Assembly: GCA_036626215.1 (NCBI GenBank)
Contig: JAZKSG010000002.1
Span: forward strand, 1-59,597
Direction of reading: 5' to 3'
DNA: 59,597 nt
Origin: Thermoplasmatota archaeon
Lineage (GTDB): Archaea > Thermoplasmatota > E2 > DHVEG-1
The translations under genes were made by a program, and so were the position numbers. Positions 2,795-32,997 of this stretch are shown piece after piece (position 1 is the stretch's first letter; every line of letters starts with the position of its first letter). The notes beneath the pieces were generated by a model. The model had not been told where the DNA came from. It made no database searches and worked only from the letters and a program-made list of their open reading frames with translations.

Positions 2795-3493
2795 ATGGAT
2801 ATAAAAAACGTTTTAGCGGAGAAAATAGCAGGAGAAATAACTCTTAGCCCTACCCCTGGGCGTACCATCCGTAAATGGAGAAATGTCTTTGAGATAAACC
2901 AGACGGATCTAGCTAAAACATTAGATATGTCTCCCAGCGTTATAAGTGACTATGAGAGTGGTAGACGTAAATCACCAGGCATCCAGACAGTAAAAAAGAT
3001 TATTGATGCTTTGATTGAAATCGATGAAAAACGCGGTGGAAAAACACTCAACCGTTATGATTCTCTTATGGAAACACATGAAGGAATTATAGATATCATG
3101 GAGTATCCATTTTCAATTACAGCAAAAAATTTTGTAGAAAAAATTGATGGAAACGTAGTAACCTCAAACGAGAAAAGTCTGAATAAAAATATCAAAGGTT
3201 TCACTCTGGTGGATAGTGTTAAAACTATTAAAAATATAAATTCCAAAGATTATGTCCATCTCTATGGATGGAGCACTGAGAGAGCTATAATTTTTACTGG
3301 TATAACATATGGCCGTAGTCCCATGATAGCGGTTCGTGTACATCCTGTTAAACCATCTATGGTTGTATATCATGACCCTGGTGGGGTTGATCCTTTAGCT
3401 ATAAAACTGGCTGATCAAGAAAAAATTCCTTTAGTGGTTTCTAACATGCAGTTACAAGACTTGAAAAAGAAACTGAGGAATATAGAAGAATAG
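2795..3493 (+). CDS. XRE-type helix-turn-helix transcriptional regulator with an uncharacterised C-terminal domain
   Basis: The N-terminus (RKWRNVFEINQTDLAKTLDMSPSVISDYESGRRKSP) is a classic XRE HTH. ATG start with a TATA-like box about 45 nt upstream. Confidence 0.7.
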   Translation: MDIKNVLAEKIAGEITLSPTPGRTIRKWRNVFEINQTDLAKTLDMSPSVISDYESGRRKSPGIQTVKKIIDALIEIDEKRGGKTLNRYDSLMETHEGIIDIMEYPFSITAKNFVEKIDGNVVTSNEKSLNKNIKGFTLVDSVKTIKNINSKDYVHLYGWSTERAIIFTGITYGRSPMIAVRVHPVKPSMVVYHDPGGVDPLAIKLADQEKIPLVVSNMQLQDLKKKLRNIEE

Positions 3494-3546
3494 AAAAAAG
3501 TTTATGAATACGGAATCTTTATTTTTTTAGCTGAGAGTGTTCTTTC

Positions 3547-3705
3547 ATGGAAATGATGGGGTTATGTAGCATCTGTGGTAAACCCAGAGCGCGACATACA
3601 TGTCATCTTTGCGGTAGATTGGTATGTAGTAGTTGTTTTGATTCTGCACATGGAGTATGTAACAGATGTAAGAAAACATCTTCTTCAGATGATTTACTAA
3701 GCTGA
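3547..3705 (+). CDS. Small (52 aa) Cys-rich zinc-finger protein with four CxxC pairs in a HIT-like arrangement
   Basis: Below the ORF-track size cut-off. Translation: MEMMGLCSICGKPRARHTCHLCGRLVCSSCFDSAHGVCNRCKKTSSSDDLLS. The regular CxxC spacing is unlikely by chance in AT-rich DNA. Confidence 0.55.
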   Translation: MEMMGLCSICGKPRARHTCHLCGRLVCSSCFDSAHGVCNRCKKTSSSDDLLS

Positions 3706-3813
3706 AGAAAATAATTTATCCTGCTTTTTGTATCTAAATTTTTTTCAGAAAAGGAAAAGAAATAAGTAATGTGTTCAAAAATAGTTTTTTGGGTAGATGG
3801 AGGAAAAAGGATT

Positions 3814-4311
3814 ATGGCTTTGGAAAAATGTCCGGAATGTGATGAGGAGCTACCAAAGAAAGCAAAGTTTTGTCCTAACTGTGGAGCAGAAATTGAGGAA
3901 AAAACTGAGGAAGAAAAAGCAAAAAATCAGGGTGAATCAACAACTCATAAGGCTACGTTGCAGAAGGTTGATTCAGTTATGAAGCTTGGAGGTAAACTGT
4001 TTTCAAAAAAGTTTATTTTGATAGGTGTCTGTATAGGTCTCTTTTTGATATTTATAGCGTCGTTGACATGGAACTTTGGATATCCTATGACGCCTACAAA
4101 AGAAGGGGATTTTAATATTGTTAGGATAGCTACAACTCTGAATGATTTGGGTATACTCGCTATTGGTGGATTCCTTCTTACCGGTGGATTAGCAAATAAA
4201 AAAATAAATCAGTTTGTAAGGCTTGCAATGATTTTAATGGGATGTTTCGTGATAGTAATAGCTATAGGGCATAGCATACCAGTTCAGACGAGTTTTTCTC
4301 TGTTTGGCTGA
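3814..4311 (+). CDS. Zinc-ribbon membrane protein
   Basis: Internal ATG chosen as start (MALEKCPECDEELPKKAKFCPNCGAEIEE is a zinc ribbon). It is followed by 3-4 hydrophobic helices. Confidence 0.55.
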   Translation: MALEKCPECDEELPKKAKFCPNCGAEIEEKTEEEKAKNQGESTTHKATLQKVDSVMKLGGKLFSKKFILIGVCIGLFLIFIASLTWNFGYPMTPTKEGDFNIVRIATTLNDLGILAIGGFLLTGGLANKKINQFVRLAMILMGCFVIVIAIGHSIPVQTSFSLFG

Positions 4312-4466
4312 AGTAATTTGTTTTGAGAGCCTTTACTTCTATTTTTTTATTTTCAACTATTTTTCTGTTACTACTTTTTCCCGATATATCTATAGATACA
4401 CATAAAGATATATCTAAATATGTTTATCTATGTTGGAGTTGTCAAAAGATTAGCTATAAATATAGG

Positions 4467-4540
4467 GGCCCGGGCCGGGATTTGAACCCGGGACAGAGGA
4501 TCCACAGTCCCATATGTTACCAGGCTACACCACCCGGGCC
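4467..4540 (-). tRNA. tRNA-His (anticodon GTG) with genome-encoded G-1
   Basis: The reverse complement GGCCCGGGTGGTGTAGCCTGGTAACATATGGGACTGTGGATCCTCTGTCCCGGGTTCAAATCCCGGCCCGGGCC folds as a cloverleaf. Acceptor stem GCCCGGG/CCCGGGC, anticodon loop CTGTGGA, T-loop TTCAAAT, plus an extra 5' G. Confidence 0.9.
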
Positions 4541-4751
4541 ATATAAAAAATAGGTGAAAATGAGTAGCCTTTTAGGATTTGGTGAAATATTTGAAGAGTT
4601 ATTTAAAACTATTTGCCGATTTTTGAACTAAAACTTTTTATTCTATTAACAAGATTTCTTAAATAATTTGTATATATCACCAGAAAAACATCACTCTTCA
4701 TAAAAAGATATTTATAATAAAAGATTAAATATTATATTGTAAGAAGATAAA

Positions 4752-5198
4752 ATGATTAAAACCCCTAAACTGTCGAACAACATCGCTGTTTCAGAAGTAT
4801 TAGGTACTGTACTACTTCTAGGTATTTCAACTATAGTTGTCAGCGGGGTGTATATCGCTATTCTTTCAGCTGAACCTCAGATAGACGATGCAAAACATGT
4901 TGATATAAGAGGAAAAATTGAGAAAAACAACCTAATTTTGGAACATGCCGGCGGGGAAAGTCTTCCAGTTGAATCAAAGATTGTTTTAACCAATGAGTCA
5001 GGTAGTACAAAACAGATAGTAGTGGATGACTATATCGATGATAAAGGCCCCAAAGACAGTGAATGGGAAATCGACGAAAAAGTGAATTATGAGTTGAGTG
5101 ATGACTACTTCAATAGATATGAAAATCTCTCTGTTTCGATTATAGACCCAAATTCTAACTCAGTTATAGTAGACACATATTTCAGAGAGGAGGAATGA
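4752..5198 (+). CDS. Archaeal type IV pilin-like protein (class III signal peptide)
   Basis: The N-terminus KLSNNIAVSEVLGTVLLLGISTIVVSGVYIAIL matches the archaeal prepilin/DUF1628-type signal. First of three such genes in a row. Confidence 0.7.
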   Translation: MIKTPKLSNNIAVSEVLGTVLLLGISTIVVSGVYIAILSAEPQIDDAKHVDIRGKIEKNNLILEHAGGESLPVESKIVLTNESGSTKQIVVDDYIDDKGPKDSEWEIDEKVNYELSDDYFNRYENLSVSIIDPNSNSVIVDTYFREEE

Positions 5199-6817
5199 TA
5201 ACGATGAATAAGATAACTAACAGGGGGAATAACTATGCGGTCTCTGAAGTTGTTGGAACTGTTTTATTGTTAGTTATATCTATCACAATTTTCAGCAGTG
5301 TATATATTTCTCTTTCAACCGTCGACCTTGGTGAGTCTACCCCTTCTGTTCATGTTACTGCTTCACTTAATGATACAACATTGACTTTGGAACACTGTGG
5401 TGGTGAAAGTTTAGAAAATGATACAAAAGTTGTTTTGAGAAATGAGAACAATGAAGTTGAAAAAATCAAGATTGATAAATATCTAGATGAGGATGAAGAG
5501 GAAAACAACGTTTGGGATATCGGAGAAAAAGTCGTAATAGATGTATCTGACAATTTTCCTTTTAGTCGTTACGAGAAGCTCTCTGTCCAGGTGGTTGACT
5601 CTAACAGTAGATACACCATGATGATTGCAGATTTAAAAGAGGAACGTCATTCAGATTTAAAGATTTTTGTAAAAGATGAAAAGATAGAGGGTGAAACCCT
5701 CTGGTGGATTAACACAACTGTTACCAATCTTGGTCCATCCGAAGCTGAAAACGTAGTAGTTGAAATACCTCTATCACCAGGTTTAAAATTTGAAGGCAAC
5801 TCTGAGGATAGTGATGGCAGTTTTAATGATGGTACAGGTTTATGGAATGTAGGATCAATTTCTGAAGGAGTCTCTAAAAAGTTGAATATAAAGGTTAATC
5901 TATCAGCAGAGGTAAATCCTTCCGCCCAGTTAGCCATAGTTCTAGATGGAACAATGGAAAGCGGTTACTTCTCTGATGTATTAACAGGATTATCTGATGC
6001 TCTTAATATGTCTACTATTCCTCATAACGGGCAAATAGAGATGACTGTTATTCAATATGGTGCAATAGATGATGAAGATTATGATGGGGATGCTCGAGTT
6101 GAAGAATATGGTGGTGGTAAATCTTGGGTTGTTGATGAGAGTAATTATGAAAATGTAGCCGATTTCATGGTTAACGAAATAGATAGGATGGGTGCAGGTT
6201 CTAGTCTGGATTATGCTGTTCCTATGTCTTCGGGTGTCAAGCTTGCTCGTAAAACCCTTGAAAACCGATACAATGTCATCAACCAGCCAGAGCAGAGACA
6301 GGTTATTGTTTTGATAGCATCTCACACACCGAACTGCTATGTAGAGGGCTCTCATACAGGAGTTGAAGCAAAAAAATTTCAATTAGCTGATCATCAGTAC
6401 GATATTGGTAAAGCTGATGCAGTATTAAAAAGAGACAATTTGTTGGATGCTTTAAAGATGCATGACCGTTTTGAGTATCCAGAAGGACCAGATGAGATAG
6501 ATTTAGCGATAATAGATGGAGAGACTTCACTTGAGAAACTTATCTATAGTTGGCGTTGGAGTTTGTACCACCTAGTTTTCCCGCAGCCAGGCTACGAATA
6601 TCCTGAAGGGAGAGGATATCCAGAGGACGCAGGATGGGTCCTTAATATAACGACAAGCTCCATGGATCTATCGGATTCAATAAAAGATATGTTTAGACCG
6701 ATATTTCAACTTAAAAGAGATATACCGATAAGAATTATTTCTTCCAAGTATTCAGATCCTAATCCTGAAAACGATTTATCTTCTGTTTCAATTTCGGTTT
6801 TACCAGAAGAGAGATGA
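5195..6817 (+). CDS. Large pilin-like protein: class III signal peptide, DUF11-like repeat and vWA-like domain
   Basis: N-terminus is NRGNNYAVSEVVGTVLLLVISITIFSSVYI. A DUF11-like segment follows (TVTNLGPSEAENVVVEIPLSPGLKF...GLWNVGSISEG), then a possible degenerate MIDAS motif (IVLDGTMESG). Its start overlaps the upstream stop (ATGA). Confidence 0.65.
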   Translation: MITMNKITNRGNNYAVSEVVGTVLLLVISITIFSSVYISLSTVDLGESTPSVHVTASLNDTTLTLEHCGGESLENDTKVVLRNENNEVEKIKIDKYLDEDEEENNVWDIGEKVVIDVSDNFPFSRYEKLSVQVVDSNSRYTMMIADLKEERHSDLKIFVKDEKIEGETLWWINTTVTNLGPSEAENVVVEIPLSPGLKFEGNSEDSDGSFNDGTGLWNVGSISEGVSKKLNIKVNLSAEVNPSAQLAIVLDGTMESGYFSDVLTGLSDALNMSTIPHNGQIEMTVIQYGAIDDEDYDGDARVEEYGGGKSWVVDESNYENVADFMVNEIDRMGAGSSLDYAVPMSSGVKLARKTLENRYNVINQPEQRQVIVLIASHTPNCYVEGSHTGVEAKKFQLADHQYDIGKADAVLKRDNLLDALKMHDRFEYPEGPDEIDLAIIDGETSLEKLIYSWRWSLYHLVFPQPGYEYPEGRGYPEDAGWVLNITTSSMDLSDSIKDMFRPIFQLKRDIPIRIISSKYSDPNPENDLSSVSISVLPEER

Positions 6818-29927: not shown

Positions 29928-30161
29928 TTGGATCGTGAAGAAATAGAAAAACTGTGGTCGTGCCCCAATTGCGGGTCACAAATGAGGAAAATAGCTAACG
30001 ACAGTACACCGTATAGAGTTTGTACACAATGTGGATGTTCAGTAGAGGCAGAAGAAAAAACTTTCAATCCGGGTACTTTATGTCCCAACTGTAAGCAGCC
30101 ACTTGGGGACAATATGGAATGTCCTTATTGTGGTTATGATTTAGGTTCAGATTTTGATTAA
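29928..30161 (+). CDS. Small multi-zinc-ribbon protein
   Basis: CPNCG, CTQCGC, CPNC and CPYCG pairs. TTG start. Confidence 0.5.
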   Translation: MDREEIEKLWSCPNCGSQMRKIANDSTPYRVCTQCGCSVEAEEKTFNPGTLCPNCKQPLGDNMECPYCGYDLGSDFD

Positions 30162-30327
30162 AAAAACCAATAATTTTTAATTCTTTTTTTTTTGCAACCA
30201 TCCGCTCTATTTTATAGGTTTTAACAGACTATATGAAACAAAAAAATATATTTTATTAGGATATTTATCATGCAATCAAAAACCTTATATAACGTTTCAA
30301 GCTAAAAAAAGAGTGGAGGAGGTAAAA

Positions 30328-31443
30328 ATGTCAATAGAATCTCTGGTTGATCGGGATTATCTTTATCTTGGCTCAAATGAGTCCATCTCAAAAGCATTAC
30401 CAAAATTTGAATCAACAGACACCCTGATAATCAAAGATGGAAACAAATATCAAGGCGTCCTACTGGAAAAAGACATAGCTAGAACAAAAATATCGCTCAA
30501 TACAAAAGTAAAAACTTTTATGACACATGCACCTACATTAAAGATAAATCAGCCTGTAGAAGAAACAGCGCGGTTGATGTTGGAAAACAGAATGTACCAG
30601 CTACCTGTTTTAGAAAATAAAAAAATCAAAGGTGTAGTAACAGCAAATCAAATCTTAACGAGGATAGTGAAACAAGAAATCGGGAATAAGAAAGCCGAAG
30701 AATATATGACTTCAAAGCTAACCACTATTAAACCAGGTGATCCTCTAAGTAAAGCCATAAAGCTATTTCGAGGTAAAGATATAAACATCATACCAGCGGT
30801 AGAGGACAACAGAGTTATAGGTATTCTCGATATGCATTCTGTCCTCAAAAGAACTGTACATCCAGAAAACAGACCTGAGGGATTCAAAGAACATGGAGCC
30901 TATGTAGACGAAAAAGAAGGCTACATAAAAACACCTGTTCAAAACTATATGGAGACACCTCTGAAGATTTTTAATCCGGAAGATAAAATAAATGACATAG
31001 TTGACCACATGACAAAAAATAATCTCCATGGAGTACTCATCGGAAATGAAAACAAAGCAGAGGGGATTTTAACTAAAAAAGATCTGTTAGAGCCAATCGC
31101 GGTATACACAAAAAAAGAACCTATAATAGTTCAATTCGCAGGGGAACTAGATAAACTTACAGGGTTTAACAAAGAGGCAGCTAAAAAAGAGTTGTTTGAA
31201 GATTTTAGAAAATATGAAGATTATCTTAACGTGATACAAATATTTGTACATTTAAAACAACACAACGAAACCAGACGGGATTTACATCTTATACACTGCA
31301 GAATGAGGTTATCTTATCCGGGAGGGATGTTTATAGCTACAGAAGAAGGCTGGGGGTATATGCATGCTATCCGAGAGGCAGAGGCAGAAGTAGAACGGCA
31401 GATAAAAAGAAAAAAAGAGAAAGAAAGGGATAAGAGGCGATAG
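30328..31443 (+). CDS. Four-CBS-domain protein with a C-terminal HPF/RaiA (S30AE)-like domain
   Basis: Start moved to the ATG at 30328 after GGAGG. CBS repeats span about aa 5-255. The C-terminus (IIVQFAGELD ... IQIFVHLKQ ... HCRMRLSYPGGMFIATEEGWGYMHAIREAEAEVERQIKRKKEK) mirrors the HPF pattern (...V..A.E.G.DMYAAID...DKL.RQL.K.K.K). Confidence 0.7.
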   Translation: MSIESLVDRDYLYLGSNESISKALPKFESTDTLIIKDGNKYQGVLLEKDIARTKISLNTKVKTFMTHAPTLKINQPVEETARLMLENRMYQLPVLENKKIKGVVTANQILTRIVKQEIGNKKAEEYMTSKLTTIKPGDPLSKAIKLFRGKDINIIPAVEDNRVIGILDMHSVLKRTVHPENRPEGFKEHGAYVDEKEGYIKTPVQNYMETPLKIFNPEDKINDIVDHMTKNNLHGVLIGNENKAEGILTKKDLLEPIAVYTKKEPIIVQFAGELDKLTGFNKEAAKKELFEDFRKYEDYLNVIQIFVHLKQHNETRRDLHLIHCRMRLSYPGGMFIATEEGWGYMHAIREAEAEVERQIKRKKEKERDKRR

Positions 31444-31446
31444 AAG

Positions 31447-31752
31447 ATGGGAGAATACTGGATAACACACGTAAAGAAAAAAGATGACAAACACATTGAG
31501 CAAGTGAAGGCATTGATGAACACAGTTGAGGGGTTAACTAATCCAGTAAAATATAACCGAGATCAAGTAGTAGAAAGTATACAGAAAGGTGACGACTGGT
31601 ATACCTGTATGTTGAAAGAGAAGAAAAATGCAAAAAATGTATGGGAGAAAACATCAGAAGTACATACAGTAAAAATTGATGGAGACAAATTTATAAGAAC
31701 CGATAGAAATAAAAAGAAAGAAGATAACCTAGGAAAACTTCCTCAGCTCTAA
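31447..31752 (+). CDS. DUF3892-family protein
   Basis: YWITHVKK ... DWYTCM ... FIRTDRNKKKEDNLGKLPQL matches my recollection of DUF3892. It lies 3 nt after the upstream stop. Confidence 0.55.
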   Translation: MGEYWITHVKKKDDKHIEQVKALMNTVEGLTNPVKYNRDQVVESIQKGDDWYTCMLKEKKNAKNVWEKTSEVHTVKIDGDKFIRTDRNKKKEDNLGKLPQL

Positions 31753-31776
31753 AAAAAAGAAAAAAAACAATGTTTT

Positions 31777-32997
31777 TTATGCGCCAAATTTTTCGAGTCG
31801 TTCAGCGTTAGCCATAGCTAACGGCATTAAGTCTTCACCTGGAAAACGACATCCAAGGCCGCCTTTTGTGCAGCTACGTTCACCAAAAATTTTTACTTCA
31901 TCGACACGACAACGACCAGAATATAGAAGTACTGGTACAGGATGCCAACTATGATACTCTAGCTGGGATGGAGTAGAATGATCTCCTGTAACGATGAGTA
32001 CATCAGGGTTTAAATCAATAACTCTGGAGATTTGGTTATCTACTCTCTCTATTTCTTTCAATTTTTTGTTATAATCGCCGTCTTCCCCATAGCTATCTGT
32101 TTTTTTAATATGGACATAGAAGAAATCAAAATTATCCCAGTTTTTCTCTAATGTCTCGAATTCTTCAGCGATCTCTTCACCGGTCTCCAACACATTCATC
32201 CCTAAGAGACGGGAGATTCCTCGGTACATAGGATAGGATGCGATAGCAGCTGCTTTTAATCCGTATGTTTCATTCATGGTGGGCCAATCTGGTTTTTTAG
32301 AGAAACCACGTAGAAGTACCATGTTGGCAGGGTGTTGATCCTTCAATTTTTTCTGAGCTTGATTTATGAAACTATTAACGATTTCAGCAGTTTTTTTAGC
32401 TTCTTCTGAAAGAGGTTTAGGGTCTAGAGGTTTCTTTCCGATTTCTTGTGGATCGGTATCGGATATGTCGGCGGAAAGATTTTCTCCTCTTATAACTAGT
32501 AGAAATCTATATTCTTTTACTGTTTCTACATGTATTTCAACACCAGGTATCTCTATGTCTCTTAAGATTTCGCATAGTTGCTGGTTTTTTTCTGATGGTA
32601 TACGACCTGCTCTTCTATCTACTACTTCTTCATTTTTGTTTACTTCACAAAAGTTTCCTCTGGCTGATATGTCTCCTTTTTTTAGTTTGAAATCTATGCC
32701 TGCAGCAGATAGAACTCCTCTTCCAACTTGATATTTTATAGGGTTGTATCCAAAGAGTGATAGGTGGCCTGGGCCGCTGCCTGGTGTTATCCCTGGGGCT
32801 ACAGGTTGTTGAAGGCCACATATGCTTTTGGTTGCTAATTTATCAAGATTAGGTGTATGTGCGGCTTCCAGCTCGGTTAAACCGTTTTCGCCAGGTAGAC
32901 CGCCGAGGCCATCTATAACCATTAATACGATTTTAGTGTCGGATGGTTTTTTCAGTTTTTTTATAATATTTAAATCCATTTTGTGTGTTCTCTCCAT
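31777..32997 (-). CDS. apgM: Cofactor-independent phosphoglycerate mutase, archaeal type
   Basis: VLMVIDGLGG, GPGHLSLFGY, FFYVHIKKTDSYGEDGD, TGDHSTP. Confidence 0.85.
   Translation of the reverse strand: MERTHKMDLNIIKKLKKPSDTKIVLMVIDGLGGLPGENGLTELEAAHTPNLDKLATKSICGLQQPVAPGITPGSGPGHLSLFGYNPIKYQVGRGVLSAAGIDFKLKKGDISARGNFCEVNKNEEVVDRRAGRIPSEKNQQLCEILRDIEIPGVEIHVETVKEYRFLLVIRGENLSADISDTDPQEIGKKPLDPKPLSEEAKKTAEIVNSFINQAQKKLKDQHPANMVLLRGFSKKPDWPTMNETYGLKAAAIASYPMYRGISRLLGMNVLETGEEIAEEFETLEKNWDNFDFFYVHIKKTDSYGEDGDYNKKLKEIERVDNQISRVIDLNPDVLIVTGDHSTPSQLEYHSWHPVPVLLYSGRCRVDEVKIFGERSCTKGGLGCRFPGEDLMPLAMANAERLEKFGA

Follow-up and report, generated by a model that had tools for sequence, protein, structure and literature searches.

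The question raised by this locus is whether an archaeal gene that joins CBS domains to a domain resembling bacterial HPF encodes a ribosome hibernation factor, and whether the small gene directly behind it is part of the same system. The gene (30328..31443, + strand; an intact open reading frame of 371 aa plus the stop codon) lies in a stretch of 59,597 nucleotides, hereafter the window, which is the whole stretch of DNA that was analyzed. A sequence-only reading had proposed four CBS motifs at the N-terminus of the protein and an HPF/YfiA-like fold in its last ~105 residues, and had suggested that the latter be compared with the PF02482 profile and with HPF structures. The N-terminal assignment was borne out. 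Pfam places four CBS stretches (E 5.6e-36) in the CBS tetrad (aa 1-261; 30328..31110, + strand), and the AlphaFold model of the whole protein (built on 24 homologues, pLDDT 84.8) folds this part into four beta-alpha-beta-beta-alpha units. Using the whole-protein model, Foldseek matched SriA, Dri, MJ1225 and AMPK-gamma (E 1e-20 to 1e-15), the CBS-tetrad matches spanning 265-306 columns. The 50 matches listed were CBS-tetrad proteins only, with no HPF-family chain among them, and thus the C-terminal domain was modelled alone.

This domain (aa 262-371; 31111..31440, + strand) is HPF/RaiA-like by profile as well as by structure. The Pfam family PF02482 (Ribosomal_S30AE) matches aa 289-366 with 26.7 bits when the whole protein is searched and with 29.8 bits when only the C-terminal 107 aa are used, both above the curated gathering cut-off of 23.7 bits. 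The domain model (aa 262-371, 37 homologues, pLDDT 93.3) consists of a strand (residues 5-11), a helix (21-39), three further strands (42-55, 58-69, and 72-81) and a terminal helix (83-109). Against the PDB, HPF/RaiA/pY-type factors made up 33 of the 35 Foldseek matches listed with E <0.01; the best was Listeria HPF (TM 0.75, rmsd 2.6 A), and E. coli HPF was found at E ~1e-4 with an identity of 23-25%. HPF-family chains lead both structure searches run with the domain. A sequence profile of the domain retrieved 9SR9_H, the HibA protein discussed below (E 4.5e-30), and after HibA only bacterial HPF/RaiA chains at E <0.1, among them those of T. thermophilus (4V8H, E 5e-4) and E. coli (6H4N_x, E 1.2e-3). 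The HPF/YfiA-like reading of the C-terminus is upheld by both of the comparisons that had been suggested for it.

The NCBIfam equivalog model for HPF/YfiA (TIGR00741) scores 22.6 bits on the whole protein and 26.3 bits on the C-terminal domain, below its cut-off of 40.9 bits; we therefore regard the domain as a homologue, and not as an equivalog, of bacterial HPF. Such a score is expected for a divergent archaeal branch, and in published trees the archaeal HPF domains form a separate deep clade (PMC13728122). Compared with bacterial HPF, the domain has longer hairpin strands and a longer terminal helix. Moreover, whereas the bacterial and plastid factors HPF, RaiA (YfiA) and pY are stand-alone or carry a dimerisation domain, the window protein has its HPF-like domain fused to a CBS tetrad. 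In a scan of the whole host genome (1.40 Mb in 90 contigs, 90% complete), PF02482 had one match only (29 bits at 31177-31425).

Taken as a whole, the protein aligns collinearly and from end to end with HibA of P. abyssi (PDB 9SR9 chain H; E 3.6e-49, aa 8-370 versus 12-379), and it also matches 9L96_a, another CBS protein from a deposited ribosome structure (E 5.7e-37). The architecture, the fold and the full-length homology to characterised proteins are established here. Given the end-to-end collinearity, we place the protein in the HibA/AHA family, and we are highly confident that the gene, called hibA in the following, encodes a ribosome hibernation factor of this type.

HibA was described by Madru et al. 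(Nat Commun 2026, after a preprint of October 2025) from P. abyssi (PAB0961) and Thermococcus barophilus, with the structures PDB 9SR9-9SRF and 9T7H, of which 9SR9 is given as HibA-ATP in the data-availability list (PMC13324472). By cryo-EM, HibA was seen on the P. abyssi 70S, where its C-terminal domain occupies the mRNA/tRNA channel of the 30S, as bacterial HPF does; on the 50S, three positions of its CBS module were seen, with the CBS3 loop extending to the peptidyl-transferase centre (PTC) (PMC13324472). Inhibition of translation in vitro requires the C-terminal domain, and deletion of hibA in T. barophilus lowered stationary-phase 70S by ~60% and doubled the lag (PMC13324472). AHA, encoded by HVO_2384 of Haloferax volcanii (Souza et al., EMBO J 2026), belongs to the same family; its HPF domain takes the place on the 30S where HPF binds in bacteria, its CBS3 loop 3 lies inside the PTC, and two AMP molecules are bound at the CBS3/CBS4 junction (PMC13728122). 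The abstract of that publication reports a reduced stationary-phase viability of the knockout (PMC13728122). The view of the sequence-only reading that HPF homologues are bacterial and plastid proteins is outdated, as HibA is found in 47% of archaeal genomes (PMC13324472) and AHA has 3160 homologues across 17 phyla, with the HPF domain argued to date to LUCA (PMC13728122). The CBS-tetrad/HPF fusion has thus already been published, in a family that has structures, knockouts and phylogenies, and the window gene adds an example from uncultured Thermoplasmatota.

With HibA, the window protein shares the CBS tetrad, the long CBS3 loop and the HPF/RaiA-like C-terminal domain, and with AHA the membership in the same two-module protein family. 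It differs from HibA in length (371 aa versus 392 aa, the last ~13 residues being absent) and in coming from an uncultured, AT-rich Thermoplasmatota lineage. Other ribosome-bound CBS-tetrad hibernation factors are SriA-D/ARC-P and ARC-A of Methanosarcina and Methanolobus, and Dri of Pyrobaculum, whose tetrads resemble that of the window protein (Foldseek E 4e-20 for 9ZNF_4 and E 3e-15 for Dri 9E6Q_3). However, an HPF domain is missing from Sri/ARC and Dri, which use other elements to block the ribosome; Dri consists of two tetrads, and the sequence matches of the window protein to Sri chains cover the CBS part only (E 6e-11 to 1e-5). With one tetrad and an HPF domain, the window protein falls outside both types. 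The same comparison bears on whether the protein could be a generic CBS-domain regulator, e.g., a transcription factor, that does not act on ribosomes. Several close homologues are labelled "predicted transcriptional regulator" by JGI, CM-3/HhpR, itself a CBS-tetrad family, regulates transcription, and pull-downs with Thermococcales HibA revealed ties to DNA replication and recombination proteins (PMC13324472). Yet HhpR, like Sri and Dri, lacks the HPF-like domain found here, the HhpR model scores 33.8 bits on the window protein versus a cut-off of 520, and the collinear partner of the window protein is a ribosome-bound HibA, so that a regulator of this kind is extremely unlikely.

Binding to the 70S and inhibition of translation have been demonstrated for HibA of P. 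abyssi and AHA of Hfx. volcanii (PMC13324472, PMC13728122), and by homology the window protein would be expected to bind ribosomes, arrest translation and bind nucleotides. Its HPF-like domain, a predicted blocker of the A and P sites and of the mRNA channel, would occupy the decoding centre and the channel of the small subunit, overlapping the A- and P-site tRNAs as well as the mRNA. The CBS tetrad, a predicted adenine-nucleotide-binding module, would be placed on the large subunit, with its long CBS3 loop able to enter the PTC. Since one polypeptide would span both subunits, the idle 70S would, under starvation or stress, be kept joined and inactive as well as protected, and the parked ribosomes would be freed once growth resumes.

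A long flexible CBS3 loop is predicted in the window protein (aa 178-197; 30859..30918, + strand). Its 20 residues have a pLDDT <50 and pair with P. abyssi residues ~190-207 in the alignment with HibA; among the 24 homologues, G190 does not vary and K196 hardly varies. Based on alignment and model, we read it as corresponding to the "PTC loop" of HibA and to "loop 3" of AHA. Adenine nucleotides would probably bind at the CBS3/CBS4 junction. There, the invariant CBS4 motif G246-x-x-T249-x-x-D252 is intact (GILTKKDLLEP). The CBS3 motif (30829-30849, aa 168-174), which follows G-h-h-T-x-x-D in the family, reads GILDMHS, i.e., the T..D of HibA is D..S in the window protein (T168D and D171S). These two positions are T and D in 85-88% of homologues, and the window copy is the only one among the fully aligned homologues in which both are changed. 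One of the two AHA-type nucleotide sites may therefore be altered, which, as judged from the motif, would set the window protein apart from AHA with its two AMP sites. The sequence-only reading had also put forward an energy-charge-controlled silencing of ribosomes. Of this, the silencing agrees with the role of the fusion as a hibernation factor in the homologues, but energy-charge control is not established there: the CBS module of P. abyssi binds AMP with a Kd of 12 uM, tighter than ADP or ATP, and neither AMP nor ATP clearly altered the ribosome binding of HibA (PMC13324472).

The window copy is a divergent one. Its nearest relatives, from uncultured Thermoplasmatota MAGs, are 38-47% identical, and in quick IQ-TREE runs, from which all HibA and DUF3892 trees used here were taken, its branch is long (0.74-1.24 substitutions per site versus a median of 0.1-0.3). 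The distribution of HibA in the class is patchy, with 69 of the 197 species-representative genomes and 38 of the 108 in the same family having the protein. In G002, the closest sampled relative and a member of the same genus, the zinc-ribbon, DUF3892 and apgM genes that surround hibA in the window follow each other in order with 95 nt in its place, and HibA was not found elsewhere in this 87%-complete genome either. The long terminal branch, the two CBS3 changes, the absence from G002, its syntenic site included, and the presence in only about a third of the class could all point to a relaxed or decaying copy that is en route to loss and no longer functions in hibernation. Against this, the frame is intact and preceded by a strong ribosome-binding site, 31 of the 35 positions that are conserved in at least 80% of cases among 80 homologues are kept (a mid-range score for the family), the structure model is confident, and the GC content of the gene (0.36) is close to that of the window (0.35). 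Decay is thus very unlikely, and a functional HibA/AHA-type factor is the reading we retain.

With respect to the surroundings, the zinc-ribbon gene is an open reading frame of 77 aa (29928-30161, + strand) with four CxxC pairs (double zinc ribbon), 166 nt 5' of hibA, and it keeps the same position in G002. The syntenic G002 locus (L083, G002:C16:11000-17000) corresponds at 3325-5219 to positions 29928-32997 of the window, and there the zinc-ribbon protein has 78 aa and apgM is likewise convergent.

The Shine-Dalgarno motif of hibA, GGAGGAGGT (30315..30323, + strand), is separated by 4 nt from the ATG at 30328. An alternative GTG at 30313 overlaps the first base of the motif, i.e., its 5' edge, and for this reason the ATG at 30328 is favoured as the likely true start. 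Further upstream, 36-43 nt 5' of the start codon, the TATA-like box TTATATAA (30285..30292, + strand) is a possible archaeal promoter. At the other end, the stop codon TAG (31441-31443) is followed after a gap of 3 nt by the ATG (31447) of a gene of 101 aa (31447..31752, + strand). As noted in the earlier reading, its product is a DUF3892 protein, matching PF13031 with 49.8 bits over profile positions 1-71 of 71 (gathering cut-off 22.3 bits). An apgM-like gene of convergent orientation terminates 24 nt further on, and this arrangement, together with the 3-nt gap, gives hibA and the DUF3892 gene the appearance of a two-gene operon. From their layout the two are probably co-transcribed, as had been suggested before, and this is compatible with the conservation of the gene pair. 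In a search of sequencing runs, no RNA run was listed as a match; the only DNA runs that matched came from salt-lake metagenomes and contained 0.30 and 0.16 of the sampled words.

The conservation of the pair was assessed from both sides. Among 80 species-representative HibA loci in all, the gene of a close DUF3892 homologue lies directly 3' on the same strand, with a gap of -4 to ~+10 nt, at 11 of the 28 loci of the Thermoplasmatota clade and at none of the 52 from other lineages, and in the IQ-TREE phylogeny the linked HibA copies form one clade. On the DUF3892 side, the 197 genomes of the class were searched with a custom alignment (membership at >90 bits), since the Pfam model missed some members of the subfamily to which the DUF3892 protein of the window belongs, e.g., in G001. 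The resulting 17 loci are distributed over 16 genomes of one family and seven genera; 15 of the loci, from six of these genera, have HibA as the next gene upstream. The two counts (11/28 and 15/17) are not independent, as the genomes overlap the contig set. The subfamily is set apart from other DUF3892 proteins by its scores (at least 98 bits versus at most 52 bits), shows 24 invariant columns and is basic (pI 9.1); in the host genome, DUF3892 has one copy only, at the hibA locus. The adjacency is an unreported feature and a modest lead: a DUF3892 gene follows hibA in the window, while the HibA publication (PMC13324472) contains no mention of DUF3892, nor does the AHA publication (PMC13728122).

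There is roughly an even chance that this adjacency is simply an inherited gene order within one family, with no functional meaning. A single origin would suffice, since the linked HibA copies all belong to one clade, and DUF3892 persists without HibA both in G002 and in G098, where a more divergent copy stands alone in other surroundings. In addition, bacterial DUF3892 proteins occur in defence-type operons. G029 has two hibA-DUF3892 pairs (L002 = G029:C7 and L010 = G029:C10), and of these the DUF3892 copies are close relatives, whereas the two HibA proteins lie far apart in the tree. The pair is therefore not strictly co-inherited, and the mismatch points to replacement or conversion of one partner. 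On the other hand, the overlapping or nearly abutting arrangement (-4 to ~+10 nt) has been kept at those 15 loci in six genera, although their HibA proteins are only ~40-47% identical to that of the window. Strong matches to the subfamily among the 197 genomes are all in one family, and its high conservation, seen in the invariant columns, also speaks against an adjacency without meaning.

A more specific possibility, which we put forward tentatively and consider doubtful, is that DUF3892 serves as a dedicated accessory of HibA hibernation in this one Thermoplasmatota family, either as a small ribosome- or RNA-binding factor or as a partner that sequesters or releases HibA. A second ribosome- or RNA-binding role is considered because the literature gives the DUF3892 fold as dsRBD/HPF-like: an Aravind-group preprint describes a three-stranded meander plus helix, as in dsRBD and HPF, and proposes that DUF3892 senses viral RNAs or modified ribosomes. 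Aligned by hhalign, the DUF3892 and HibA C-terminal domain alignments gave no relation (probability 0.3%). A DUF3892 profile found nothing at E <0.02 among PDB sequences, and an ESM Atlas search with DUF3892 returned other DUF3892 proteins or unnamed clusters only. If the accessory role were true, it would be the first function for any DUF3892 protein and would make this the first two-gene HibA system. The loading, release and sequestration of HibA were left open by both groups, and a conserved basic DUF3892 protein would be an obvious candidate.

Several observations concern the wider family. Members of the Thermoplasmatota clade end soon after the last helix, without the C-terminal tail of ~20 aa that is present in homologues of Bathyarchaeia, Thorarchaeota and Archaeoglobi. 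DUF3892 was considered as a substitute for the missing tail and rejected, as Thermoplasmatota homologues without DUF3892 are tail-less too. A contig of 729 kb labelled "uncultured Actinomycetota bacterium" (L047, CAVQRL010000018.1) encodes a Bathyarchaeia-type HibA nearly identical to that of L038, and is likely a mis-binned or mislabelled archaeal contig. In two cases the HibA homologue lies within a much longer open frame (702 aa in L081, 29-2137, + strand; 641 aa in G165:C72:3870-4178), which may reflect an N-terminal extension or a fusion, or may be an artefact that arises because the earliest start codon was chosen. Finally, at the Archaeoglobaceae loci L060, L067, L075, L076 and L077, hibA is followed at a distance of 1-9 nt by a gene of 393-397 aa in the same orientation, a conserved neighbour that differs from DUF3892.
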